Part shown: positions 42,633-57,139 of the stretch, piece after piece
How positions within the stretch are numbered: the stretch's first letter is position 1
Layout: each line of letters opens with the position of its first letter
Assembly (NCBI GenBank): GCA_965249835.1
Contig: CBDFMY010000003.1
Location: 1,249,979 to 1,313,978, forward strand
Direction: 5' to 3'
DNA: 64,000 bases
Source of the DNA: Candidatus Poriferihabitaceae bacterium
Lineage (GTDB): Bacteria > Pseudomonadota > Gammaproteobacteria > Arenicellales > Poriferihabitantaceae
Translations under genes and position numbers: made by a program
Notes under the pieces: model-generated
Databases searched by the model: none
Seen by the model: only the letters and a program-made list of their open reading frames with translations
What the model was told of the DNA's origin: nothing

Positions 42633-43790
42633 ATGAAAACCACCGAAACCACCCGCATTCTCACCGACCTCATTGCGCTGGATACCACCAGTCGTAATTC
42701 GAATCTGGTGTTGATCGAATACGCGCAGTCGTTGCTCGCCGACCATGGCGTTCAATCTGAATTGACTTTTGATGCCGAGAAAAACAAAGCCAATCTGTTC
42801 GCCACCCTCGGGCAGAGCGAGCAGCCCGGCATCGTGCTTTCCGGACATACCGATGTGGTGCCGGTGGACGGGCAGGATTGGCGCACCGACCCGTTTGCGG
42901 CGGAAGTGGTCGGCGACAAGTTATACGGTCGCGGCAGTTGCGACATGAAAGGATTCATCGCCATTTGTCTCGGGCATATCGACCGCATTCTCAAAGCCAA
43001 ACTAGACACACCGGTGCATTTTGCTTTTTCCTACGACGAGGAGGTGGGTTGCATCGGCGTCAATGGATTGCTCGCCGAACTCGCCAAACGCGAAGTGCAA
43101 CCTCGCGCCTGCATCATCGGCGAGCCGACCAGCATGGGCGTGGTGCGCGCGCACAAGGGAATGTTGTCCAAACACTGCCGGGTGCGCGGCAAGTCATCGC
43201 ATTCATCCTTGACCCACCACGGCGTCAATGCGGTCGCCATGGCGGCCAAAACCATCGCTTTCATCGACGCCATTGCCGAGCGCATCGCCCGCGAGGGGCC
43301 CTTTGATGCGGGCTTTGAGCCGCCCCACACGACCCTGCACACCGGCGTGATTCACGGCGGCACGGTCAACAACATCATTCCCAATAGATGCGAGTTTGAG
43401 TTTGAAATTCGCAACCTGCCGCAACATCCGCCGTTGCCGTTGTTTGAAGAAGTGGAGCGTTATGTCGAGGAAACCCTGATTCCGAAAATGCATGCGGTCA
43501 GTGCCGAGACCGGTTTTGACTGGGAGACCTCGTCGAATTATCCGGGCATGAACACCGATGCCGGCCATGCGGTGGTCGACATGGCATCCAAATTGCTGGG
43601 GGATGTCGGCGACCCCGGCAAGGTCAGTTACGGCACCGAAGGCGGGCTGTTCCAGAAGGCCGGCATTCCCACGGTAATTTGCGGTCCCGGCTCCATCGAA
43701 CAAGCACATAAGCCCGATGAGTATGTTGAACTCGCGCAACTTTCCAAAGGCGAGCAATTCATTTCTGATTTGATCGACTCATTGCGGTGA
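42633..43790 (+). CDS. argE: Acetylornithine deacetylase (M20 family)
   Basis: LSGHTDVVP, GRGSCDMKG, YDEEVGC, GTEGG motifs; ArgE-like length. Confidence 0.8.
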   Translation: MKTTETTRILTDLIALDTTSRNSNLVLIEYAQSLLADHGVQSELTFDAEKNKANLFATLGQSEQPGIVLSGHTDVVPVDGQDWRTDPFAAEVVGDKLYGRGSCDMKGFIAICLGHIDRILKAKLDTPVHFAFSYDEEVGCIGVNGLLAELAKREVQPRACIIGEPTSMGVVRAHKGMLSKHCRVRGKSSHSSLTHHGVNAVAMAAKTIAFIDAIAERIAREGPFDAGFEPPHTTLHTGVIHGGTVNNIIPNRCEFEFEIRNLPQHPPLPLFEEVERYVEETLIPKMHAVSAETGFDWETSSNYPGMNTDAGHAVVDMASKLLGDVGDPGKVSYGTEGGLFQKAGIPTVICGPGSIEQAHKPDEYVELAQLSKGEQFISDLIDSLR

Positions 43791-45079
43791 CCATTTATCT
43801 TGGCCTCGGTGCCAACCACGGAGACCGCAAACACAACCTGGAGCGCGCCATCTGCGAGTTGGTGGCTGCCGGGTTTCGCTTGCAACGGGTTTCCCCGCTA
43901 GTCGAATCGCCCGCCTTGCTGCCGCCGGAGGCCGACCCGGCGTGGCACAAACCCTATCTCAACCTCGTCATCAGTGGCGATGCCGACTGGCAGCCGCATG
44001 CGGGCTTGGCAATCGCCAAACAAATCGAGTGCGCGCTTGGTCGTGGTAGCGGCGCACGGTGGTCACCGCGCCCGATTGATATTGACCTGTTGCATTGGCA
44101 TGACCACAAAACCATCTCCGGCAAGTTGACCCTGCCCCACGCCGATGCCCGTCGCCGGGATTTCGTGCTGACGCCGCTTTTGCACTTGCAAGCGGATTTG
44201 CCGGTGGGCGAAAACGGCGAGAGCGTATTTGAACTAACCCAAACCATCCGCCCCATTCCACTGTGGATGGCAATCGTCAACCTGACTCCGGATTCATTTT
44301 CCGACGACGGCAGTTGGCGCAACAAAGAAGAGGCCGATGCACTCGACGCCTATCTCGACAAACTCATCGAGCGCAATGTGCACATCATAGATATCGGCGC
44401 GGAATCCACCCGCCCCGGCGCCCGCCCCCTCAGCCCGGCTGAGGAATGGTTGCGCCTAGAGTCGGTGCTCGGCAACGTCGCCGATAGATTGCATGGCAAA
44501 CACATCAAGCCGTGGTTGTCGATAGACAGCCGCCATCCGGCAACCATTGAAAAAGCGTTGCGCTACGGCGTGGATATCATCAACGATGTGACCGGCCTTG
44601 CCGACCCGGAAATGATGGCAGTGGTGAGACAAAACGGTTGTCAGGTGGTGGCAATGCACAGCATGAGTGTGCCGGTGGAACCGGCGTTGACATTGCCCGA
44701 TGAGCGCGGCGCGGTGGAGCAGATGGTGGAGTGGGCGGAGAAAAAAATGGAAATCTGGGCGAAGGCCGGTCTCGACTTCAACCGCATCATTCTTGACCCC
44801 GGCATCGGTTTCGGCAAATCCGCCATTCAAGCCTTTGACCTGCTTTCCCACTGCCGGGAACTTCGGCAAGGTGGCTTGCGGCTACTCATTGGCCATTCAC
44901 GAAAATCCTTCATGAGCGGCTTGACCGACCGCCGCGCCGCGCAACGCGACCTGGAAACGCTGGGGATGTCGCTGGCGTTATGCCAGCAGGGGGTGGATAT
45001 TATTCGCGTACATTCGCCATTCATCCACCAACGCGCCGCCCTCGCCTGGGCGCATATCGCTGCCCTCCCGCACAATTGA
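43787..45079 (+). CDS. Bifunctional HPPK (FolK) / dihydropteroate synthase (FolP) fusion
   Basis: The N-terminal IYLGLGANHGDR...RWSPRPIDIDLL matches HPPK. From MAIVNLTPDSFSDDG...DIGAESTRPG...INDV...LIGHSRKSF it matches DHPS. The GTG start overlaps the argE stop (GTGA). Confidence 0.85.
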   Translation: MTIYLGLGANHGDRKHNLERAICELVAAGFRLQRVSPLVESPALLPPEADPAWHKPYLNLVISGDADWQPHAGLAIAKQIECALGRGSGARWSPRPIDIDLLHWHDHKTISGKLTLPHADARRRDFVLTPLLHLQADLPVGENGESVFELTQTIRPIPLWMAIVNLTPDSFSDDGSWRNKEEADALDAYLDKLIERNVHIIDIGAESTRPGARPLSPAEEWLRLESVLGNVADRLHGKHIKPWLSIDSRHPATIEKALRYGVDIINDVTGLADPEMMAVVRQNGCQVVAMHSMSVPVEPALTLPDERGAVEQMVEWAEKKMEIWAKAGLDFNRIILDPGIGFGKSAIQAFDLLSHCRELRQGGLRLLIGHSRKSFMSGLTDRRAAQRDLETLGMSLALCQQGVDIIRVHSPFIHQRAALAWAHIAALPHN

Positions 45080-45800
45080 GCCATTGCGCTTGCCTTTTAT
45101 TCTCGTTTACTTTTGGCGTCTCAAAGAGAGTCACACTTTGCGATTCACCATTGCCTATCATTTGTCATCCTCGCCGGCAGGCGGGGATCCAGACGCGGCG
45201 AAGCCGCGCAAATGGCGGCGGCTTCGCCGCCGGTTTTTCGAGCCAGAATAACGAGACGAAAAGCGTGTTGTCCGGCGTAGCCGGACTATTAGCGATGTCA
45301 CGCGTAGCGTGACTCATTTGCGGCGAAGCCGAACTCCTTATAATCCAGACAAACATTGCGCGCCGCATTTTCGTTGTCAGGCAAGGCGCGCGAGGAGCGA
45401 GGGAGGGAGCATACATTAAGTATGTGAGCGACCGAGAGACGATGCGCAACACCGCATGGCGACGAAAAGGCAAGCGCAATGACGGCAAGGCGATGGTGCT
45501 TGTTGCTTACTAATGTATGAGCGCGTCCCGGCGGCTACGCCACTCTGGATCCCCGCCTGCTGGCGAGGATGACGAATACTGATTCTTTCGTTGCCACGCT
45601 CACAGCCAGAGCGTGCAGGGACGCACGCTGGCGCGTGGAAACAGGATGTTTCCTCCTGCGATGGGGGGGGCGCGGGGGTATCTCCCCCGCAAAGCGCGAG
45701 CACGCGCAAGCTGAACCTTTGCATATCAGCCACAGGTTACTCGGCGGCGTAAGCCGCCGCCATCGCCCGTCGCACACCACTGTCATTTGCGGCGGAGCCA
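45080..45800. repeat. Composite/nested block of the intergenic repeat family
   Basis: Module L (+) at 45083-45105 and L (-) at 45458-45480. The inverted pair gtcatcctcgccggcaggcggggatccag (45164-45192) and ctggatccccgcctgctggcgaggatgac (45545-45573). Module B is inverted at about 45355-45457. Segments are shared with 58740-58860. Confidence 0.8.
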
Positions 45801-46538: not shown

Positions 46539-46775
46539 ATGAAACGCCCGATACTACTGCTTATCAAAGCCTACCAACTGACGCTGAGTCCGTATCTCGG
46601 TCGCTGTTGTCGTTTTCATCCCAGTTGCTCGGCCTACGCGTTGGAAGCGGTCGAACGCCACGGCGCGCTCAAGGGCAGTTGGCTGGCACTCAAGCGCATC
46701 GGTCGATGCCACCCGTGGCGCGAAGGCGGCGAAGACCCGGTGCCGCCGGTTGTTCGGCAACCGAAAACAATTTAG
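46539..46775 (+). CDS. yidD: Membrane protein insertion efficiency factor YidD
   Basis: [53 protein letters not shown]. Confidence 0.9.
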
Positions 46776-46795
46776 CGGCACATTACATGTTTAAT

Positions 46796-48493
46796 ATGGA
46801 AATCCAGCGGATGATCTTGTTCGGTGCCCTCGGCCTGGTGCTGATTATGCTCTGGCAGTCGTGGGTGGAATTTCAGCAGCAAACCACCGCCGCCAACGAC
46901 CCGGCCGCGGGTTCCGGTTTGAACCAGCGCACCGAAGTTGCCGGCACCGCTTCCGGTTCCCGAGTTGGTGATGTTCCCGAAGCCCCGGCATTGTCGGTGC
47001 CATCTGCGAATACCGACCCAACCATCGAAGCGGTCGCCACGCAGGTTTCGGCTACCGATGGCCGGTTGATCAACGTCGCTACCGATTTGATGCGCGTCCA
47101 GATTGATCCACGTGGTGGCGATCTGGTACGGGTGGAATTGCTGCGTCATCCGGTGAGCGTTGATCGGCCGGATGAACCGTTCGTATTAATGCACCGCGAT
47201 GACGGCGGCTTGTTTATCGCCCAGAGCGGACTCATCGGCGCCGACCGTAAGTATCCAGACCACGGCGTGACCTATTCGGTTTCCGCTTTGGATTACGACC
47301 TCGGCGACCACGAGCAAATGGAAGTCGTCCTTGACTGGCGTGCGCCGGACGGAGTCGCCTATCAAAAAGTATTCCACTTCCGGCGCAACGCCTACCGCAT
47401 CGAAGTGGACTTCCGCGTAGACAACCAAAGCCCCGAGCCGTGGACTGGTTTTGTGTATGGCCAGTTGAAGCAGACCGAAATCGTTCAGCAAGGTTCCATG
47501 GGTTTTCTTGGCCGTCTGCCAAGTTATAACGGCGCGGCGGTCTACACCGCCGAAGACAACTACGAAAAAATTACCTACGACGACATGCGCGAGGAACCGC
47601 TTAATCTTTCCACCGAATCCGGCTGGGTTTCCATGATGCAACATTACTTCGTGGCGGCGTGGTTGCCCTCCGACTCCGAGCGCTATCAATTTTTCTCCGG
47701 TGTTGCCGATACCGCATCCAATCCCCAATATCGCATCGGTTATAAAACCACGCAACCGGTGCGAATCGGCGGCGGCGAGGAAGGCGTAATTCGCACGGTG
47801 TTGTTCGTTGGACCCAAAGAGCAAAAACGCCTGAGCCAACAGCAAGCCGAAGGGTTGCTCCTGGCGGTGGACTACGGCTGGCTGACGCCCATCGCCGACC
47901 CGTTGTTCTGGCTGCTGAGCAAAATTCATGACGTGGTCGGCAACTGGGGCTGGGCGATCATTTTGCTGACCCTGCTGGTCAAGGCGGTTTTCTATCCGCT
48001 GTCCGCCACCAGTTACAAGTCCATGGCGAAAATGAAAAAACTGCAGCCGCGTTTGAAAACCCTCAAGGAGCGTTACGGCGACGACAAGCAGAAGTTCCAG
48101 CAAGAAATGATGAAGTTGTATAAAGCCGAAAAGGTAAATCCGGCCGGCGGCTGCTTGCCGATTCTGGTGCAGATTCCGGTGTTCATCGCGTTGTATTGGG
48201 TGCTGCTCGAGAGCGTGGAATTGCGTCAGGCGGACTTCATGTTCTGGCTAAAAGATTTGTCCATACCCGACCCGTATTTTGTCCTGCCGTTGATCATGGG
48301 CGCCTCAATGCTGGCGCAATACTTTCTCAACCCGGCACCGGTAGACCCGCTGCAAAAGAAAATCATGATGGCCATGCCCATCGTTTTCACGGTGTTCTTC
48401 CTGTGGTTTCCCGCCGGGCTGGTGTTGTATTGGGTGGTGAACAATCTGCTTTCCATTACGCAGCAATATTATATTTCCAGAAAATACACTTGA
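46796..48493 (+). CDS. yidC: Membrane protein insertase YidC
   Basis: MEIQRMILFGALGLVLIMLWQSW start; C-terminal KMKKLQPRLKTLKERYGDDKQKFQQEMMKLYKAEKVNPAGGCLP. An alternative ATG is at 46787. Confidence 0.9.
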   Translation: MEIQRMILFGALGLVLIMLWQSWVEFQQQTTAANDPAAGSGLNQRTEVAGTASGSRVGDVPEAPALSVPSANTDPTIEAVATQVSATDGRLINVATDLMRVQIDPRGGDLVRVELLRHPVSVDRPDEPFVLMHRDDGGLFIAQSGLIGADRKYPDHGVTYSVSALDYDLGDHEQMEVVLDWRAPDGVAYQKVFHFRRNAYRIEVDFRVDNQSPEPWTGFVYGQLKQTEIVQQGSMGFLGRLPSYNGAAVYTAEDNYEKITYDDMREEPLNLSTESGWVSMMQHYFVAAWLPSDSERYQFFSGVADTASNPQYRIGYKTTQPVRIGGGEEGVIRTVLFVGPKEQKRLSQQQAEGLLLAVDYGWLTPIADPLFWLLSKIHDVVGNWGWAIILLTLLVKAVFYPLSATSYKSMAKMKKLQPRLKTLKERYGDDKQKFQQEMMKLYKAEKVNPAGGCLPILVQIPVFIALYWVLLESVELRQADFMFWLKDLSIPDPYFVLPLIMGASMLAQYFLNPAPVDPLQKKIMMAMPIVFTVFFLWFPAGLVLYWVVNNLLSITQQYYISRKYT

Positions 48494-48604: not shown

Positions 48605-48673
48605 GTTTGTCCGGATTGTCCGGTCAACCCGGATTAATGACGAGTGGAGAGAAATCACCTGAGTGCAATGGGA

Positions 48674-50023
48674 ATGAATGTATCTGACGACATCGTGGCT
48701 GTGGCAACGCCGCCGGGGCGGGGCGCCATCAGTATCGTGCGACTGACCGGCTCCGGTATTCCGGCGTTGTGCAACACACTAACCGGCGCATTGCCCGAAC
48801 CGCGTTACGCCGCATTGTGCGACTTTGTTGCGGCGGACGGCACCGCCATTGACCGCGGACTCGTGCTTTATTTCCCCGCGCCGCACAGTTACACCGGCGA
48901 ACACGCGTTGGAACTGCACGGCCACGGCAGCCCGGTGGTAATGAAAATGTTGCTTCGCCGGTGCCTCGAATTGGGCGCACGGCTGGCGCGCCCCGGCGAA
49001 TTCAGCGAACGCGCATTTTTGAATGGCCGCCTCGACTTGACGCAAGCCGAAGCCGTCGCCGACTTGATCGCCGGAGGCACCGAATCCGCCGCACGCTCGG
49101 CCATGAACTCGTTGCAGGGCGCATTCTCATCCCGCATTGATGAACTGGTGGTTGACCTCACCGAACTGCGGATACTGGTGGAAGCGGCCATCGACTTCCC
49201 CGAAGAAAGCGTGGACCACGCCAAAGACGCCTTTGCCGACGAGCGCATCCACGAACGCCTTAATCGATTGCGAAAACGTTTCGACGAATTGCGCGCATCC
49301 GCCCACCGCGGGAAACTCCTGCGAGACGGACTCAAAGTTGTGCTCACCGGGCCACCCAATGCCGGCAAGTCCAGTATCTTGAACGCGCTGTCCCAACAAC
49401 AACGCGCCATCGTCAGCACCATTCCCGGCACCACCCGCGACTTGCTGGAACAGGTCATCGAAATAGACGGCTTGCCTTTGGAAATTACCGACACCGCCGG
49501 CATCCGCGACAGCACCGATGAAATCGAAATTGAAGGCGTGCGCCGTGCGCGTGATGCACAACGGCGTGCGGATTTAATTTTGCTGGTGATTGACGACTCC
49601 GCTACCACCGAACAGGAAGCGGCGCAGTTGTTGCAACAAACTAGCGGCGGCGCGTGCGTTTGTTTGGTGCGCAATAAAATCGACCTGAGCGGACGAAGCG
49701 CGGGTGCCGACGAGCACGGCGTAGCGTTGTCGGCGCTTAGCGGCGAGGGCATGAACGAACTGGCCGAGCGGATCAAACATCACGCCGGATTTCGCCACAG
49801 CGAAGATAGCCCGTTCATCGCCCGCCAACGCCATCTCGACGCCTTGCAACGCGCCACCGCCAGTTTGGAGGCCGGCATCAAGCAATTCACCGCTCATCAC
49901 GCCGGCGAACTCCTCGCCGAAGAACTCGGCGCCTGCCAACGCGTCCTCGGAGAAATCACCGGCACCGTCACCAGCGACGACTTGCTCGGTTTGATATTTG
50001 CTTCGTTTTGTATTGGCAAATAA
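48674..50023 (+). CDS. mnmE: tRNA uridine-5-carboxymethylaminomethyl modification GTPase MnmE
   Basis: DIVAVATPPGRGAISIVRLTG, G-domain GPPNAGKSSILN / DTAGIR, C-terminal FCIGK. Confidence 0.9.
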   Translation: MNVSDDIVAVATPPGRGAISIVRLTGSGIPALCNTLTGALPEPRYAALCDFVAADGTAIDRGLVLYFPAPHSYTGEHALELHGHGSPVVMKMLLRRCLELGARLARPGEFSERAFLNGRLDLTQAEAVADLIAGGTESAARSAMNSLQGAFSSRIDELVVDLTELRILVEAAIDFPEESVDHAKDAFADERIHERLNRLRKRFDELRASAHRGKLLRDGLKVVLTGPPNAGKSSILNALSQQQRAIVSTIPGTTRDLLEQVIEIDGLPLEITDTAGIRDSTDEIEIEGVRRARDAQRRADLILLVIDDSATTEQEAAQLLQQTSGGACVCLVRNKIDLSGRSAGADEHGVALSALSGEGMNELAERIKHHAGFRHSEDSPFIARQRHLDALQRATASLEAGIKQFTAHHAGELLAEELGACQRVLGEITGTVTSDDLLGLIFASFCIGK

Positions 50024-50106: not shown

Positions 50107-51063
50107 ATGACCATGCCCACCGCCACTGAAGCCGCCACTGAAGCCGCCACCGAAACCAATCGGCAACCCGAAGCCAGCCCCCAGCATCGTTACACCCGCA
50201 ACATACTCGTGCAGATGCTGGCGGTGTTCTTGTTGCTGTTGGGCGTAATCGTCTGGCAGTGGGATGTGGTGCAGCAGATTTATCTGAAAAATCAGATCAA
50301 CGCCATCGGCTGGATCATCAACGGCGGCATCGTGCTGCTGTTTCTGTTCGGGTTGGCGGTATTGGTGTGGCGTTTTTTCGAATACCGCGATCAGGAACTT
50401 GCCATCGCCCGCTTTTTGCGGAACATAGAACAAGGTCGGGATCCATTGCTGGAAGTGAACCCGAATTGCATGCTTGCCGAGCGTTATCACACCTTGCACG
50501 AACTCAGTCGGCGGCACACCGACATCAACCAGAACGCGCTGGCGGCGACCCTGCTGGCATCGGAATCCAGCCGCAACAGTTTCCCGAAGTTTGTTCATAA
50601 TGTGCTGATACTCACCGGCGTTTTCGGCACCATCATTTCCCTGTCGCTGTCCCTGCTGGGTGCCTCGGAGATGATTCACGGCACCGCGGTGAATGGTCTC
50701 GGCACCATGATCTTCGGCATGTCGACCGCGCTGTCCACCACCATGACCGCGATTCTCGCCTACCTCATCTTCGGCTACTTCTACATCAAACTCACCGACA
50801 CCCAGACCTACCTCATCAGCCGCGTCGAAGAAGTCACCGCCACCATTTTATTGCCGCACCTGCGACTCAACCAGCATGCGGAGAAAGATTCCACCGACAG
50901 CGTGCGCAGTGTCGGCCAGCCGGTCGATGCCATCACTCGAGCGGAACTCGAAGCGATGCTGACGCGCATCGTTGAAGCGCAGCAGCGTTCCGACGAAGAA
51001 AGCCGCGCATTGTTGGCCGATGCGGTTGAGCTGCTTCGCGAAGGTTTCCGCCTGCGCAAATAA
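50107..51063 (+). CDS. MotA/TolQ/ExbB-family proton-channel-like membrane protein
   Basis: Two N-terminal TM helices, a cytoplasmic loop, then ILTGVFGTIISLSLSLLG and GMSTALSTTMTAILAYLIFGYFY, which resemble the ExbB/TolQ/MotA C-terminal TM pair. Start at 50107 (MTMPTATEAATEAATE). Confidence 0.6.
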   Translation: MTMPTATEAATEAATETNRQPEASPQHRYTRNILVQMLAVFLLLLGVIVWQWDVVQQIYLKNQINAIGWIINGGIVLLFLFGLAVLVWRFFEYRDQELAIARFLRNIEQGRDPLLEVNPNCMLAERYHTLHELSRRHTDINQNALAATLLASESSRNSFPKFVHNVLILTGVFGTIISLSLSLLGASEMIHGTAVNGLGTMIFGMSTALSTTMTAILAYLIFGYFYIKLTDTQTYLISRVEEVTATILLPHLRLNQHAEKDSTDSVRSVGQPVDAITRAELEAMLTRIVEAQQRSDEESRALLADAVELLREGFRLRK

Positions 51064-51093
51064 ACTCGAACGAATTTCCACGCCAACCGACCC

Positions 51094-52296
51094 GTGCATC
51101 CCACCGCCAACAACGGATTCATCGATTTGCGCGTGGGCCACGGCGCGCGCGGAATCGGCGACGACAGCGTGTGGCCGTCGTTCACCGACATCATGACGGT
51201 GATCGTGATGATATTCCTGATGGCGTTCGTGATCATGATGATGCGCAACTTTGAACTAGACCGCCAATTGACCACCACCGAAATTTCCCGCGAAGCCGGC
51301 CTCGCGGCCAATCGCGGTTTGCTGGATAAAATCCACGCCCTTGAAGCCCAAACCAAGGGCCTTCAACAGTCCCTCGGCATCAGCCAGGGCGAGCGAGACG
51401 CGCTGCAGGCGCAACTGCTGGAAGAATTGAAACGCATCAAGTTGATGGTCGCCGACAACCGCAACCTTGACGAGCAACTCGCCGCCATCATCGTCGAGCG
51501 CAGCCGCTTGTTCGAGGAAAAGCAGCAACAGGCGGAGCAGTCCGGTGCGCGCATCGCCGCGCTGACCGCCAGCGAAGCGGACTTAAGTCAACGCATCAGC
51601 GCAGTGAGCGAGCAGCTCGCCAATCTCGAACTCCGCTCGGCCGGTGAAATCGAAACTTTGAGCACCGCCAACCTGACGCTCACTCAGCAACTCGACCAAG
51701 TGGCAACGCAACTGGAACAGGTTAGAGTGTTATTGCAAACCGAACAGCAACAGCGTCGCGCGCTCGGTCTGCAGATTGAAGTTCAGGAGCGCGAATTGGC
51801 CGAAAAACAGGAATGGCTCACGCAGTTGCAGTCCATGCAAGAGCAATCCACCGAACGCTACGCCGAAGCCCGTGCGCAAATCGACCGCCTCAACCAATCC
51901 ATCCATCGCCGCGAAATCGAAAACGCCGCCTTGCAAGAACTCGCTGATGTGTCCGACCAACGCTTCCATTCGTTGCAGGAAGAATACGACTCATTGGACG
52001 CCGAATACCGAACTCTGGTTCGTCCGGCGCGCAACTCGGCGGGCAAGTATGTGGTGGAAGTGTGGATTCTAAAATCCGGCGACCAATACCACTTTCGCCT
52101 GAAACAACCCGCGCAACCCGCCGCCGTGGATTACGCGGAAGATCACCTGCATCAACGCCTCGCCGCACTCAAAGCGAAGCAGGGGAAAAATCTCTACACC
52201 AAAATAATCATTCCCGAAAACAACTCGCTGTCGCACAACGAAGCATGGCGCATCACCCGGGAAATTTTGCAAGGATATGATTATTATTATCAGTAA
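51094..52296 (+). CDS. MotB/ExbD/TolR-like anchor with conserved Asp, about 250-aa coiled coil and small C-terminal domain
   Basis: [25 protein letters not shown] (Asp-containing TM as in MotB/ExbD/TolR). Residues about 60-300 are heptad-rich and Q/E/L-rich. The C-terminus ([27 protein letters not shown]) is ExbD-like by eye. GTG start. Confidence 0.55.
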
Positions 52297-52349: not shown

Positions 52350-54230
52350 ATGAAATACCCCGACCCATTCGCTGTCATCGTCATCGGTGCCGGACACGCC
52401 GGTGTTGAAGCCGCGCTTGCCGCCGCCCGGGTCGGGTGCCGCACTTTGCTGGTTACCCATAACATTGAAACCATCGGGCAAATGTCGTGCAACCCGGCCA
52501 TCGGCGGCATTGGCAAGGGACACATCGTCAAGGAAATAGATGCCATGGGCGGGGTGATGGCGCGTGCCATTGACCAAGCGGGGATTCACTTTCGCACACT
52601 CAATTCGCGCAAAGGTCCGGCGGTACAGGCGACTCGCGCTCAGGCCGATCGGGCGTTGTATAAAATGGCGATTCGGCGGGCGGTGGAGCATCAACCCAAC
52701 CTGACGCTTTTCCAGCAACCGGTGGATGACCTGCTGGTGCATAACGGCCGCGTCACCGGCATCAAAACCCAATTGGGCATTGAGTTCAACGCCGCCACGG
52801 TTGTGCTTACCACCGGGACTTTTTTGCACGGCAAAATTCATGTTGGCTTCAACAGCGACCGCGCCGGTCGTGCCGGCGACCGGTCGTCTTTGGCGTTGGC
52901 GGATCGTCTGCGCGAGATGCCGTTCACCGTGAGTCGTTTGAAAACCGGTACGCCGCCGCGCATAGATGGTCGGACCATCGACTACACCCAACTCGAAGCC
53001 CAGCCGGGCGATCAGCCGCCGCCGCGTTTTTCCTTTCACGGCGATGTGAGTGCGCGTCCGCCGCAGGTGTGTTGCCACATCACCGCCACCAATTCCGACA
53101 CCCACGACCTCATCGTCGCCGCCCTCGACCGCTCGCCCATCTACGGCGGCGTCATCGAAGGCGTGGGACCGCGCTATTGCCCCTCCATCGAAGACAAAGT
53201 CGTGCGCTTCGCCGAGCGCAACAGCCATCAGATTTTTATCGAACCCGAAGGATTGAATACCACCGAAATTTATCCCAACGGCATCTCCACCAGTTTGCCG
53301 TTTGATGTGCAACATCGTTTCGTTCGAACCATTCGTGGATTCGAACGCGCGGTCATCACACGCCCCGGATACGCCATTGAATACGATTTCTTCGACCCGC
53401 GCGGACTCAAGCAAACCCTTGAGACCAAGTGCATCAAAGGTTTGTTTTTCGCCGGCCAGATCAACGGCACCACCGGCTACGAAGAAGCCGCCGGCCAGGG
53501 ACTCATCGCCGGCTTGAACGCCGCGTTGCTCGCGCACGGTCGCGAAGGCTGGTGCCCGGCTCGCAACCAGGCCTACATCGGCGTGATGATTGACGACCTC
53601 ATCACCCACGGCGCCGCCGAGCCTTATCGCATGTTCACCTCGCGCGCCGAATACCGCTTGCAACTGCGCGAAGACAACGCCGACCTGCGCCTGACCGAAA
53701 TCGCCCATCGCCTCGGTCTGGTGGACGACGACCGCAAACGCGCCTTTGACCGGAAACGCGAATCCATCGAAACCGAACGTCAACGCTTGCAGCAAACCCG
53801 GATTCACGCAAAAACGTTCGCCCCCGAACTGGCACACAAACTCCTCGGCCAGCCGCTGCAACGCGACACCAACCTGCTGGATTTGCTACGCCGTCCCGAA
53901 GTTACCTATAAAGACCTCATCGCCCTGGCCCCCGGCGCGCAGCAACTAACCGACCCGCAAGCCATCCGCCAACTCGAAACCGAGGCGCGATACAGCGGTT
54001 ACATCGAACGCCAAACCGCCGAAATTCAGCGACGGGAAAAATATCAAGACTTGCGTCTGCCGGCCGAGACCGATTATCACTCGGTGCGCGGGTTGTCTAC
54101 GGAAGCCCGTCAGAAACTGACCGAAGCCAAACCGCAAACGCTGGGGCAGGCATCGCGAATCCCGGGAGTAACGCCCGCGGCGGTTTCATTGTTGTTGGTG
54201 TATGTGAGAAAAAATCAGCGCGCAGCGTAG
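52350..54230 (+). CDS. mnmG: tRNA uridine 5-carboxymethylaminomethyl modification enzyme MnmG (GidA)
   Basis: [64 protein letters not shown]. Confidence 0.95.
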
Positions 54231-54950
54231 ATTGCGCTTGCCTATTTTCCGCCATGGTCGTTTTGCTGTGTAGTGTTGCGTTGCGTTGTCGCTTACTTAC
54301 TTAATGTAAGCGCGCTCCACCGCTCCTTGCGCGCCTTGCCTGACAACGAAAATACTGCGCACAATTTTGCGCGTATCATCCCTGATACGCGCCCTTCGGG
54401 CTCGCTTCGCTCGCGCCAATCAATTCATGGTGCTCCCGGCGATTTTTTCTCAATGTGCTTTGGCTTCTCAACGCGCTTTTGTCTTTTCAATTTATTATTG
54501 CCCTTTCATTCGTCATTCTCGCCGGCAGGCAAGTTGTTCTCGCCAAAGGCGAGAACCCAGAACTAAAAAACGATGAGAGTAACTAATACCGTCATAATCC
54601 AAGCCACATCTCCAGACCGTGATTCCTTTTGAGATGCCAAAAGCAACCGAGAAAAAGTTTTAATGTCGTTACGCCTTAGTGCGCTCAAAGCGGCGGCTAA
54701 CGCCGCCACTCTGGATTGCGCGTATCATCCCTGATACGCGCCCTTCGGGCTCGCTTCGCTCGCGCCAATCAATTCATGGCGCTCCCGGCGATTTTTTCTC
54801 AATGTGCTTTGGCTTCTCAACGCGCTTTTGTCTTTTCAATTTACTATTACCTATAATTCGTCATTGTCCGGCTTGTTCCGGGCAATCCAGTTAAAAAACC
54901 CAGCGGCGTTAGCCGCCCGTCACGCAAAGCGCGTTCACGCGCAACCGCAA
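54231..54950. repeat. Large block of the intergenic repeat family (L-B-A-extension, unique core, A-extension-C)
   Basis: Starts at the mnmG stop with ATTGCGCTTGCC. Module B lies at about 54247-54365. The module A plus extension unit occurs twice (54367-54520 and 54716-54870, 349-bp offset). Confidence 0.85.
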
Positions 54951-54953
54951 ACA

Positions 54954-56126
54954 TCATCCTCCGCCAACCACCTCGCCGGTTGCCAACACCCCTTGCAACA
55001 CATCATCCAAAAACAAATACCCGCGCTCGCTGCATCGTATCCTGCCGCTTTCATGCACGACCAGTCCGCGCCCGATGGCATCGTCCAATACCGCCAGCAC
55101 CTCGTCGACATCCCGGCCAGTGCGTGTCGGTATCAGGTCGGTGTCAAAGCCGTCGATCAGGCGCAGGGCGTTCATTAACAATTCAAACCCCACATCCCGG
55201 TTCGCGATTTCTCCGCTCCCACCAACTCCGCACCCGTCCGTCACCGAGGTGAGATAGCGTTGCGGATGTTTGTGTTTCCAGTAGCGCGTGATTGCACCGT
55301 GCCGGGTTATTTTCCCGTGGGCGCCGGCACCGATGCCGAGGTAGTCGCCGAATTGCCAGTAGTTGAGATTGTGCCGACACCGCAGCCCCGCTTTGGCGTG
55401 GGCCGAGACCTCATAGCGTTCATAGCCGTGCTTGCGCGCCAACTCGTGCAGGGCTTCCTGCATTTCCATGAGGCAATCGTGCTCCGGCAGTTTTGGCGGA
55501 TGGCGATGGAACCAGGTGTTGGGTTCAATGGTGAGTTGATAGAGCGACAAATGTGCCGGAGAAAATTCCAGCGCGCCTTCCAAATCGCGGAGTGCCGCCC
55601 GGGTCGTCTGCTGCGGCAAGCCATACATCAAATCAAGATTGAAGTTGACCAACCCGGCATCGACAGCCGCACGAATGGCATTGCGAATTTCTTCGGCGGT
55701 GTGGATGCGTCCGAGTTGCTTGAGATGAGCGTCGTTAAAACTTTGCGCACCCAGCGACAGGCGGTTGACGCCGGCCGCCCGGTAGGCGGCAAAGTCGTCA
55801 TGCTCCACCGCGCCGGGATTGGCTTCCATGGTGATTTCGATGGCTTCGTCAAAGGCGATGCGCGATTGTATTTCGGTCAGCAATCGGGCGATGGCGTTGG
55901 CACCGAACAAACTTGGGGTGCCACCGCCCATGAACACGGAGACCAACTTTCGTTCGCCGCAGGCGTGGGTGGCAAGGTCGTGGTCAAGGTCCCGGATTAA
56001 GGTGGCGATGTAGGTAGGTTGGTCGATGGCACCGCGTTGTTGGTGGGAGTTGAAATCACAGTAGGGGCATTTTTTTACGCACCAGGGGAAATGGATGTAG
56101 AGGGAGAGGGGTGGATGGTTCATCAA
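54954..56126 (-). CDS. hemW: Radical SAM heme chaperone HemW (HemN-like)
   Basis: LSLYIHFPWCVKKCPYCDFNSH (CxxxCxxC), GGGTPSL, HemN_C-like tail. Confidence 0.85.
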   Translation of the reverse strand: MMNHPPLSLYIHFPWCVKKCPYCDFNSHQQRGAIDQPTYIATLIRDLDHDLATHACGERKLVSVFMGGGTPSLFGANAIARLLTEIQSRIAFDEAIEITMEANPGAVEHDDFAAYRAAGVNRLSLGAQSFNDAHLKQLGRIHTAEEIRNAIRAAVDAGLVNFNLDLMYGLPQQTTRAALRDLEGALEFSPAHLSLYQLTIEPNTWFHRHPPKLPEHDCLMEMQEALHELARKHGYERYEVSAHAKAGLRCRHNLNYWQFGDYLGIGAGAHGKITRHGAITRYWKHKHPQRYLTSVTDGCGVGGSGEIANRDVGFELLMNALRLIDGFDTDLIPTRTGRDVDEVLAVLDDAIGRGLVVHESGRIRCSERGYLFLDDVLQGVLATGEVVGGG

Positions 56127-56134
56127 TTATACTT

Positions 56135-56335
56135 GCTCGTTCGCTTGCTTATTTTCCGCCATGCTTTGTTGCGCTACGTTGCGTTGTCGCTTACTTACTT
56201 AATGTAAGCGCGCTCCACCGCTCCTTGCGCGCCTTGCCTGACGAAAAATAATCTGCGCTCGTCGTTCTGGCTCAAAACGCCGGCGGCTAACGCCGCCGCC
56301 CGCATCCTCGCCTGCGGCGAGAATAACGAACAACG
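56135..56335. repeat. Intergenic repeat (L-like plus module B plus GC-rich tail modules)
   Basis: tcgcttgcttattttccgccatgc...cttacttacttaatgtaagcgcgctccaccgctccttgcgcgccttgcctgacgaaaaataatctgcgctc is near-identical to 14090-14147. Confidence 0.8.
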
Positions 56336-56339
56336 AACG

Positions 56340-56966
56340 TTATTCTTTCTCCACCCACCGAATCAACGGCCGCCATTGCTCTACATCCTGATCCACCTGA
56401 TACGGCGACATCTCAAAAATCCCATGCCCGGCGTCGGCGGCGCGGATGTAGTTTTGAACATCGCGCAGGCGGGTGATGAGCGGAATTTTCATCTGGCTCA
56501 AAAATTGTTCAAGGTTATGGAAGATGAGCGTGTTTTCGCGGACGCGATTGGCGATTAAGCCAACCGAGGTGGCGTGCAGAAGATCGTCGAGCATAAGTTG
56601 GCCGATGAAGTGGCCGGCGGCGCGGATGTCAAGAGGCGAAGGCAACACCGGTATGATGACGCGGTCGGCAAATTTGAACAGGCGTTTTAACTGCTGTGTC
56701 GGAATGCGCGCCGGGGAATCCATGACCACCCGCTCAATGTCGGCGGAAAGGCTGGCGTGGCCGCGCTGACCGAGGCTGGCGTTGATGCCATGGATGGGGT
56801 TGAGGTTGGGGCTTCGTTGCTCCAGCCACTCAATGCTGGATTGCTGGGGATCGTAATCCACCAGTGCAACAGGCACTTTCCACAGCGCGTAGTAACTCGC
56901 CAGATTGGTCGCCAGCGTGGATTTTCCGCTGCCGCCTTTGGGATTGACCACTAGAATTGTTTTCAT
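56340..56966 (-). CDS. ParA/MinD-family P-loop ATPase (no adjacent parB)
   Basis: MKTILVVNPKGGSGKSTLATNLA deviant Walker A. GGAGAA lies 7 nt upstream of the ATG at 56966. Confidence 0.75.
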   Translation of the reverse strand: MKTILVVNPKGGSGKSTLATNLASYYALWKVPVALVDYDPQQSSIEWLEQRSPNLNPIHGINASLGQRGHASLSADIERVVMDSPARIPTQQLKRLFKFADRVIIPVLPSPLDIRAAGHFIGQLMLDDLLHATSVGLIANRVRENTLIFHNLEQFLSQMKIPLITRLRDVQNYIRAADAGHGIFEMSPYQVDQDVEQWRPLIRWVEKE

Positions 56967-57139
56967 CGTTTTCTCCGGTTGTGCCGACACCGCCGATATT
57001 TCTCTCACGCCGCCGTTCGGCGTGGCCAGCGTGGCCAATGGGGCTATTCTATACAGCAATATCAGGCAGATTCAAGACAAAAACCCACTACAATAGCCCG
57101 CACCACAATTCTGCCCACTGACCCCTGACCCGAAACCTC

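Follow-up and report, generated by a model that had tools for sequence, protein, structure and literature searches.

Inner-membrane motors built from five A and two B subunits (5:2 motors) use ion flow to drive flagella, the import of nutrients, the upkeep of the outer membrane, gliding and secretion, and defence against phages, and each new output module has revealed another way in which membrane energy can be carried to a distant site. The defining features of these ion-coupled motors are a conserved Asp in the B subunit, conserved Thr positions in the A subunit, a common fold and strict pairing of the two genes (PMC9389320, PMC11946911). Flagellar stators (the "FIT" clade) combine an A subunit that has an expanded torque-generating cytoplasmic domain with a B subunit made up of a plug, a linker and an OmpA-type domain (PMC12505986). 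In MotAB, as in the ZorAB motor of the Zorya system, B is anchored and A rotates; Zorya additionally carries a coiled coil of about 70 nm, formed by the pentameric cytoplasmic tail of ZorA (about 500 amino acids, aa), and its ZorB ends in a peptidoglycan-binding domain (PMC11946911). In the GldLM/PorLM 5:2 motors the central dimer reaches far through the periplasm and is thought to transmit its rotation to a machine in the outer membrane (PMC8986121, PMC9389320), and in the "TPH-vWA" proteins a B-type Asp helix is fused straight to an effector domain, with a TolQ-like gene as the only partner (PMC12204202). The locus described here consists of two adjacent genes, encoding a candidate A subunit (gene 1) and a candidate B subunit (gene 2), in a 64,000-nucleotide (nt) stretch of the genome of a Candidatus Poriferihabitaceae bacterium (assembly GCA_965249835.1, contig CBDFMY010000003.1, positions 1,249,979 to 1,313,978 of the forward strand; hereafter the window).

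What is new in this pair is that a long coiled coil is carried by the predicted central B dimer, not by the A pentamer, that a head domain without known relatives stands in place of a wall-binding domain, and that the two subunits come without an adaptor or effector gene. The explanation we favour, with modest confidence, is that the pair forms a housekeeping ion-driven inner-membrane 5:2 motor of the MotAB/ExbBD/TolQR/ZorAB class, in which the B dimer acts as a periplasmic force transducer; the driving ions are most likely protons. A preliminary description, made from the sequence of the window, had reported a MotA/ExbB-like and a MotB/ExbD-like gene at 50107-52296, between mnmE and mnmG. Both open reading frames (ORFs) are present there on the forward strand, and the peptides quoted for gene 1 (ILTGVFGTIISL, ALSTTMTAILAYL) and for the transmembrane (TM) helix of gene 2 were found in the translations.

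Results

Profile comparisons and structure prediction support the placement of gene 1, as a predicted divergent A subunit, in the MotA/ExbB/TolQ class; failure of such comparisons had been named beforehand as a result that would refute the motor assignment. Half of 30 homologues (15/30) matched PF01618 (E<=0.01; best 1.4e-5), and some gene 1 homologues carry a precomputed match to the same family. When a profile of 103 homologues was compared by hhalign with E. coli ExbB, the sequence of which was checked against PDB 5sv0, the match (E=0.004) aligned the two Thr-ring motifs, pairing GVFGT175 of gene 1 with GLFGT148 of ExbB, and ALSTT212 with ALLAT181. The AlphaFold2 (AF2) model of the protein has a predicted local distance difference test score (pLDDT) of 84 and a predicted template-modelling score (pTM) of 0.70. 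In a Foldseek search of the PDB with this model, all of the top 50 matches were ExbB, TolQ, ZorA, MotA or PomA, with probabilities of about 1.0 and template-modelling scores, normalised to the target, of 0.5-0.6; the best was the ExbB chain 9ddo_A (E=1e-3, probability 1.0).

The model, hydropathy and counts of flanking Lys and Arg point to four TM helices and an N-in topology. In the N-terminal part the modelled helices span residues 26-50, 52-61 and 66-108, and the short loop at 52-65 is conserved, Y59 being invariant and N62 invariant in the 30 sequences of alignment A1 and near-invariant in alignment A3. A cytoplasmic insert of about 70 aa, modelled as short helices, separates TM2 from TM3. 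Two invariant motifs of the protein fall in TM3 (G171-x-F-G-T175) and TM4 (M205-STALSTT212), which are predicted to be the ion-path helices surrounding the Asp of the B subunit. TM4 runs on into a helical hairpin, the end motif of which (L310..G313-F-R315) is invariant, and its GFRL is also found in the homologues from Nitrospinae and from a metagenome described below. The topology is therefore MotA-like in having four TM helices, and the compact cytoplasmic domain is ExbB/TolQ-like. The tail is about 37 aa shorter in the window protein and its nearest relative (P0002) than in nearly all homologues, which, judging from the alignment, is a lineage-specific shortening.

The membrane helix of gene 2 carries the residue expected of a B subunit. 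Residues W27, P28, F30, T31, D32 and M34 are invariant in alignment A2, which holds 26 diverse homologues, with the Asp32 codon at 51187-51189. Conservation of this Asp had been set beforehand as a second test of the motor assignment, and the residue proved to be retained in divergent representatives as well, and in all homologues with an intact N-terminus except one. In that exception (alignment A4), WPSLSGVM replaces WPSFTDIM, so that the Asp is missing and the gene may have degenerated or been inactivated. Within the helix, the Asp is found at the N-terminal end, a position shared by MotB, ZorB, ExbD and TolR. PADLOC models of ZorB match residues 23-153 (E=3e-6), and the best natural matches of the N-terminal profile in the PDB are also ZorB (8vvn_B, E=8.7e-4; 8vvi_A, E=0.011), with WPsFtD of gene 2 aligned to WmSFsD of 8vvn_B, Asp upon Asp; ExbD comes next at E=0.57. 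Hence the helix is of the B type and MotB-like, as the preliminary description had it, but its nearest relatives are ZorB and MotB rather than ExbD.

The NCBIfam "peptidoglycan-binding protein" model NF006543 (PRK09039) weakly matches residues 26-177 of gene 2 (E=1.5e-4; 21.7 bits against a cut-off of 305). Proteins of this family typically have an OmpA-like domain at their C-terminus. The match extends over the TM helix and into the first part of the coiled coil, and the C-terminal portion of the family has no counterpart in gene 2. The motif that precedes the helix recurs in fragments from a Sulfurimonas genome bin and from Nitrospinae. Searches with the N-terminal profile returned mostly contig-end fragments, and led to the loci outside the clade that are described below. 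Several short "proteins" on long contigs (P0416, P0375 and P0395) are N-termini of gene 2 that go out of frame soon after the TM helix, and are probably assembly frameshift errors or pseudogenes.

Between helix and head, gene 2 contains the long coiled coil that had been put at about 250 aa. This linker, at residues ~51-308, contains no Pro, is rich in Leu, Gln, Glu and Ala, and has a heptad signal. Its database matches are to coiled coils of the myosin, SMC and Rad50 types only, and the PDB profile search with A2 likewise returned coiled-coil proteins and nothing else. The length of the linker varies between about 170 and 630 aa over the family, and this variation is itself informative. Among 152 orthologues the distance from the Asp to the RPAR motif of the head ranges from 187 to 652 residues (278 in the window protein), and 32 of the 63 distinct lengths fall into one class modulo 7 (chi-square p=1.5e-15), with no enrichment at any other modulus from 3 to 11. 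Minor length classes are shifted by 3 or 4 residues, the pattern of coiled-coil stutters and stammers; the window protein belongs to one of these, and divergent representatives also cluster by length, in a class offset by 3. Between nearest neighbours, 53 of 84 indels are exact multiples of 7, against about 12 expected by chance. The commonest linker indel is 7 aa. Along the linker, indels occur from decile 2 to decile 9 and are absent at both ends. Heptad-step indels at so many positions argue for a continuous coiled coil, and not for a hairpin that grows at its tip; hence the sequences indicate that the stalk is one continuous coiled coil, most simply a parallel dimer. A coiled coil rises by about 0.148 nm per residue. 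If fully extended, the stalk would therefore measure about 38 nm in the window protein, and about 25-94 nm across the family.

The C-terminal head is marked by the motifs R-P-A-R ... L-Y-T-K-I-I-I-P ... H-N-E-A-W and a terminal Y-D-Y-Y-Y-Q, and its AF2 model (pLDDT 82) has the order beta-beta-beta-alpha-beta-alpha. A fold search of the PDB and a viral library with this model gave no significant match, nor did a profile of the head match any PDB sequence. The reported absence of an OmpA-like or other peptidoglycan-binding domain held for gene 2 in Pfam, NCBIfam, PDB-profile and fold searches, and for 26 homologues in Pfam and NCBIfam. A search of 1.84 billion representative proteins with a hidden Markov model of the head recovered 368 members, most of them (337) at E<=1e-10. 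The head is C-terminal in all 150 members listed, and there is no second architecture among the matches listed; on these search results the head-domain family is sharply bounded.

The two genes travel together. A genome scan with the gene 1 alignment found relatives in at least 227 species-level genomes, a lower bound since two exact peptide patterns were used; a contig scan with gene 2 as a single protein recovered no relatives, and those found came from the scan with A1. The loci compared are the best 80 of the 227, and belong to Arenicellales, "Ca. Poriferihabitaceae", "Ca. Spongiihabitans" sponge symbionts, metagenome-assembled genomes (MAGs) labelled Acidiferrobacterales, and unclassified Gammaproteobacteria. 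Gene 2 lies directly 3' of gene 1 in 80/80. In this comparison of synteny, a check that the preliminary description had suggested, the usual order is yidC-mnmE-A-B-mnmG, and this order is kept down to about 45-50% identity of mnmE with that of the window. The upstream side is rearranged in some loci, with mnmG still 3' of the pair, and unrelated genes are occasionally inserted beside it. A conserved third gene was sought and rejected: the extras differ between loci, both among the insertions between gene 2 and mnmG and in the loci without mnmE that were examined. Judged by their translations, L061 has a MoxR / DUF58 / transglutaminase-like set encoded on the other strand, L017 has a methyltransferase-like ORF, and L001 has glnA on the upstream side.

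The pair had been suggested to be conserved within its lineage, and it is so in all 80 loci of the clade, but it also occurs beyond it. In a Nitrospinae MAG (GCA_015231815.1; L081 1-5359), an A homologue of 323 aa (hhalign E=5e-48) ends in GFRLK, and is followed by a B gene that the contig end cuts to an N-terminal fragment, in the order yqeY-dnaG-rpoD-A-B. This position at the end of a housekeeping operon may mean that the pair has been selected to be expressed constitutively along with core genes. Both genes are complete in an unclassified metagenome contig (L084), where the B subunit has the same helix and coiled coil and the same head ending in YDYYYQ, and the neighbours are unrelated. The pair, being found in unrelated contexts out of the clade, is thus an autonomous unit, and the mnmE-mnmG position is a trait of the gammaproteobacterial clade and no part of the system. 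As had been noted for the window, tonB, tolA, flagellar and zorC/D genes are absent from its neighbourhood; the same holds for the 80 related loci and the two loci out of the clade. No TonB/TolA-type transducer lies between or beside the two genes in the window or the 80 loci, and tblastn with E. coli TolQ, TolR, ExbB and ExbD found nothing in either the 64 kb window or those loci. Most copies are left unnamed in databases, or are called "hypothetical" or "chromosome segregation ATPase". The pair is a conserved, unannotated core locus of Arenicellales sponge symbionts.

The coordinates of the two genes, their parts and their neighbours are given in Table 1. Both are real genes, because each has hundreds of conserved homologues (at least 524 for gene 2). 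The ORF of gene 1 opens upstream, at a TTG at 50008, and the starts of homologues agree roughly with the ATG at 50107. The intergenic gaps are 83 nt between mnmE and gene 1, 30 nt between gene 1 and gene 2, and 53 nt between gene 2 and mnmG, and no strong terminator was found on the forward strand between these four genes. The guanine-cytosine content of the pair, 0.54-0.59, lies within the 0.50-0.63 of its flanks, in agreement with the host-like composition described for it.

Table 1. Positions in the window of the gene pair, of the predicted parts of each subunit, and of the flanking genes
Feature	Position	Strand	Details and basis
Gene 1 (A subunit)	50107..51063	+	318 aa, ATG start
A subunit: TM1 (~29-50), periplasmic loop/helix (52-65) and TM2 (~66-88), predicted	50191..50370	+	Hydropathy, model, conservation
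A subunit: TM3 (~163-186) and TM4 (~200-227), predicted	50593..50787	+	Invariant columns, hhalign
A subunit: C-terminal tail (228-318), a cytoplasmic helical hairpin, predicted	50788..51060	+	Model helices 194-267 and 278-314; alignment
Gene 2 (B subunit)	51094..52296	+	400 aa, GTG start; ORF evidence
B subunit: cytoplasmic N-terminus, residues 1-26, predicted	51094..51171	+	G-F-x-D-L-R ... G-D-D-S-V; conservation in alignments A2 and A6
B subunit: TM helix, residues 27-50	51172..51243	+	W27-P-S-F-T-D32-I-M; invariant columns, ZorB matches
B subunit: coiled-coil stalk, residues ~51-308	51244..52017	+	~257 aa; no Pro, heptad signal, coiled-coil matches
B subunit: C-terminal head, residues 309-400	52018..52293	+	92 aa; AF2 model, conserved motifs
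yidC	46607-48493	+	Neighbour upstream of mnmE
mnmE	48644..50023	+	Upstream neighbour, context only; tblastn synteny over 80 loci
mnmG	52350..54230	+	Downstream neighbour, context only; stays linked to the pair where mnmE is lost

Other features of the surrounding sequence are recorded here as separate observations. In the non-coding stretch 3' of mnmG, a 136-nt element occurs twice (54367-54502 and 54716-54851) in copies that are 98% identical, each opening with the palindrome GCGCGTATCATCCCTGATACGCGC; these look like a small intergenic element of the repetitive extragenic palindromic (REP) or miniature inverted-repeat transposable element (MITE) kind. Within the non-coding gap of about 850 nt 5' of rnpA/yidC, a 34-nt inverted repeat (ATTTGTCATCCTCGCCGGCAGGCGGGGATCCAGA; 45160-45193 and 45544-45577) has arms that are 94% complementary and 350 nt apart, and is possibly a repeat element or an origin-proximal structure. 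Downstream of mnmG (54230-57060), rsmG-parA-parB are not the next genes. Reading of the translations suggests a radical-SAM protein of the HemW/HemN type (54954-56126, - strand, 390 aa) and a ParA-type ATPase (56340-57059, - strand, 239 aa), and likewise, in the ORF at 43787-45079 (430 aa), HPPK (folK) apparently fused to dihydropteroate synthase (folP).

Discussion

The conserved Asp, the Thr positions, the fold and the strict pairing are all present, and the pair is therefore read as an ion-coupled 5:2 motor. The evidence that supports this directly is the family placement of the two subunits, the conservation of Asp and Thr across the family, and the constant adjacency of A and B; the continuity of the coiled coil, the novelty of the head with its single architecture, and the gene context describe the output side just as directly. 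The 5:2 stoichiometry, the periplasmic location of the stalk, rotation, a target for the head and the physiological role are inferred. In the mechanism that we propose, a pentamer of gene 1 would form the outer ring, and two copies of gene 2 would put their Asp32 helices into its centre. Beyond the membrane, both B chains would continue as one parallel, heptad-phased coiled coil with paired heads at its tip; homology and Lys/Arg counts suggest that stalk and head are periplasmic. Ions moving along the interface of A and B, lined by Thr and Ser, would make A5 rotate with respect to B2, and the head would engage peptidoglycan or a target in the outer membrane. Because a TolA- or TonB-like partner, an OmpA domain and an effector gene are all absent, we propose that the B dimer itself transmits force or torque. 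Moreover, the place of the pair in housekeeping gene blocks in two phyla points to a constitutive function in the envelope, and not to defence or motility. The system is proposed to be a constitutive, vertically inherited machine for envelope maintenance.

Several observations weigh against this explanation. Firstly, the window protein of gene 1 itself scores below the threshold of PF01618 (18 bits, with a cut-off of 22.9; E=0.0025), and the PDB sequence-profile search with A1 returned no ExbB or MotA, only designed helical proteins. Secondly, the position of ExbB E176 is occupied by Thr207 in gene 1, according to the hhalign alignment. Thirdly, the head has no detectable relative, so that neither sequence nor fold gives a clue to its target. 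The periplasmic domain of TolR/ExbD was considered as a relative, since the head shares its order of secondary-structure elements, and one gene 2 homologue (P0175) has a precomputed match to PF02472. Yet hhalign gave E=0.36 for E. coli TolR (sequence confirmed) and E=0.72 for ExbD, and neither ExbD nor TolR figured among the 50 best fold matches of the head model; a relationship is thus not supported beyond the order of elements, the hhalign, fold and PDB-profile comparisons being not significant. Fourthly, many stalks of the family, reaching about 94 nm, exceed a typical periplasm of 25-30 nm, and such lengths, together with their 3.7-fold range, mean that the rod is no strict perpendicular ruler. 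Finally, the housekeeping role would follow from gene context alone.

The alternative that survives best, although we regard it as unlikely, is an anchored stator similar to Zorya. The head would then fix B2 to the wall as a substitute for an OmpA domain, A5 would rotate, and the tail of A would drive, or signal to, a cytoplasmic partner encoded elsewhere, in a system that might serve envelope-damage sensing or phage defence. ZorB is indeed nearest to the B helix, but the PADLOC match of gene 1 to ZorA is marginal (E=0.013). The hairpin tail of A is conserved, with its invariant GFRLR end kept across phyla, yet it is about 90-125 aa long, compared with about 500 aa in ZorA (PMC11946911). Similarly, an anchored B and a rotating A have their precedent in MotAB and ZorAB (PMC11946911), but a simple wall anchor needs no long and variable stalk. 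Neither zorC, zorD nor another effector lies beside the pair in the 80 loci and the two loci out of the clade, and its position is a conserved housekeeping one instead of a variable island.

We give distinctly less credence to a passive scaffold, in which the coiled coil of B would be a periplasmic spacer or envelope cytoskeleton and A its chaperone or anchor, with neither ion flow nor rotation. A 3.7-fold range of stalk lengths, many greater than the width of the periplasm, would be easier to reconcile with a lattice or an element lying in the plane than with a precise transmission shaft, and no output partner is known. However, the W-P-x-F-T-D-x-M motif of B and the Thr/Ser motifs in TM3 and TM4 of A are invariant or nearly so across phyla, which would be unexpected in a mere anchor, and these conserved residues are the very ones that define ion coupling in the superfamily. 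An inverted topology, with a cytoplasmic coiled coil that functions in chromosome biology or division near the replication origin, is hardly credible: Joint Genome Institute (JGI) names of some homologues ("chromosome segregation ATPase", "septal ring factor EnvC"), the matches to SMC and Rad50 models, and the origin-proximal block with mnmE and mnmG (gidA) would fit it, but the SMC/myosin matches are limited to the coiled coil and include no ATPase head, the Asp is placed towards the N-terminus of the helix, as in all N-in B subunits, Lys/Arg counts fit the standard topology, and the mnmE/mnmG context is lost outside the clade.

The housekeeping motor with B as its force transducer therefore remains the explanation we prefer. 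A bolder version of it, which we advance only tentatively and consider doubtful, is that the pair is a third kind of self-contained energiser of the envelope, besides Ton and Tol. The Asp-bearing dimer would be a rotating or twisting shaft of 25-94 nm, tipped by a head of a family not seen before, that carries torque or tension from the proton motive force to the wall or outer membrane without an adaptor, as a core constitutive pair of a marine sponge-associated gammaproteobacterial order that is found in other phyla too. If the B dimer is a transmission shaft, the pair would offer a minimal system of two proteins in which to test a question debated for ExbD, TolR and GldM, namely whether the central dimer rotates and does work, and would provide a natural series of shaft lengths that step by whole heptads.

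These features combine elements of several described systems. ExbB and TolQ are the best structural matches of gene 1, with which they have in common a compact cytoplasmic domain and Thr equivalents of T148/T181, and the housekeeping context is also that of Ton and Tol-Pal. Gene 1 nevertheless differs from ExbB and TolQ in having four TM helices, not three, and a Thr instead of ExbB Glu176, and gene 2 differs from ExbD and TolR in the stalk of about 170-630 aa between helix and head. In its layout, with a TM helix followed by a long spacer and a small domain at the C-terminus, gene 2 recalls TolA, domain II of which is helical in Proteobacteria. However, TolA and TonB use an SHLS-motif helix without Asp on the outside of the pentamer, whereas the helix of gene 2 bears the Asp and would be central; its spacer is a heptad coiled coil, neither Pro-rich nor a single helix, and its head is not a TonB/TolA C-terminal domain or a vWA domain. 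The likeness to MotAB/PomAB lies in the four-TM A subunit, the B helix pattern W...F/Y-x-D-x-M-T, and the presence of MotA and PomA among the fold matches. Unlike flagellar stators, the pair lacks both an expanded cytoplasmic domain in A and a plug-plus-OmpA module in B, flagellar genes are absent from its surroundings, and the best fold matches of gene 1 are ExbB and TolQ, not MotA.

GldLM is the closest mechanistic analogy (PMC8986121), although the periplasmic part of GldM is a chain of globular domains and GldL has two TM helices, in place of the coiled coil and four TM helices seen here; the locus has no genes of the type IX secretion system, and sequence similarity is not detectable, the GldL match in the PDB profile search (6ys8_G) having E=0.6 and lying in the tail. 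Among published concepts, that of the TPH-vWA proteins comes closest (PMC12204202). B subunits with coiled-coil stalks or with this head are not described in two surveys of the superfamily (PMC12505986, PMC12204202), and no published description of the gene 1/gene 2 family was found in the open-access literature. With ZorAB (PDB 8vvn, 8vvi, 8qyd), the pair has in common a two-gene A-B core, A subunits that belong to one fold family (8vvn_D was among the Foldseek matches), one subunit with a very long coiled coil, and in the B helix a W-x-S-F-x-D-L/I-M pattern, ZorB being the best natural sequence match of gene 2. Membership of Zorya itself is not indicated, as the 80 loci and the two loci out of the clade contain no neighbours of the ZorC/D/E/F/G effector types and no defence island. 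Instead, the coiled coil has its place on B, where it is predicted to be dimeric and periplasmic, a novel head replaces the OmpA-like domain, and the tail of A is short. The pair looks like a new branch among the 5:2 motor relatives that include the flagellar stator, Ton, Tol and Zorya.

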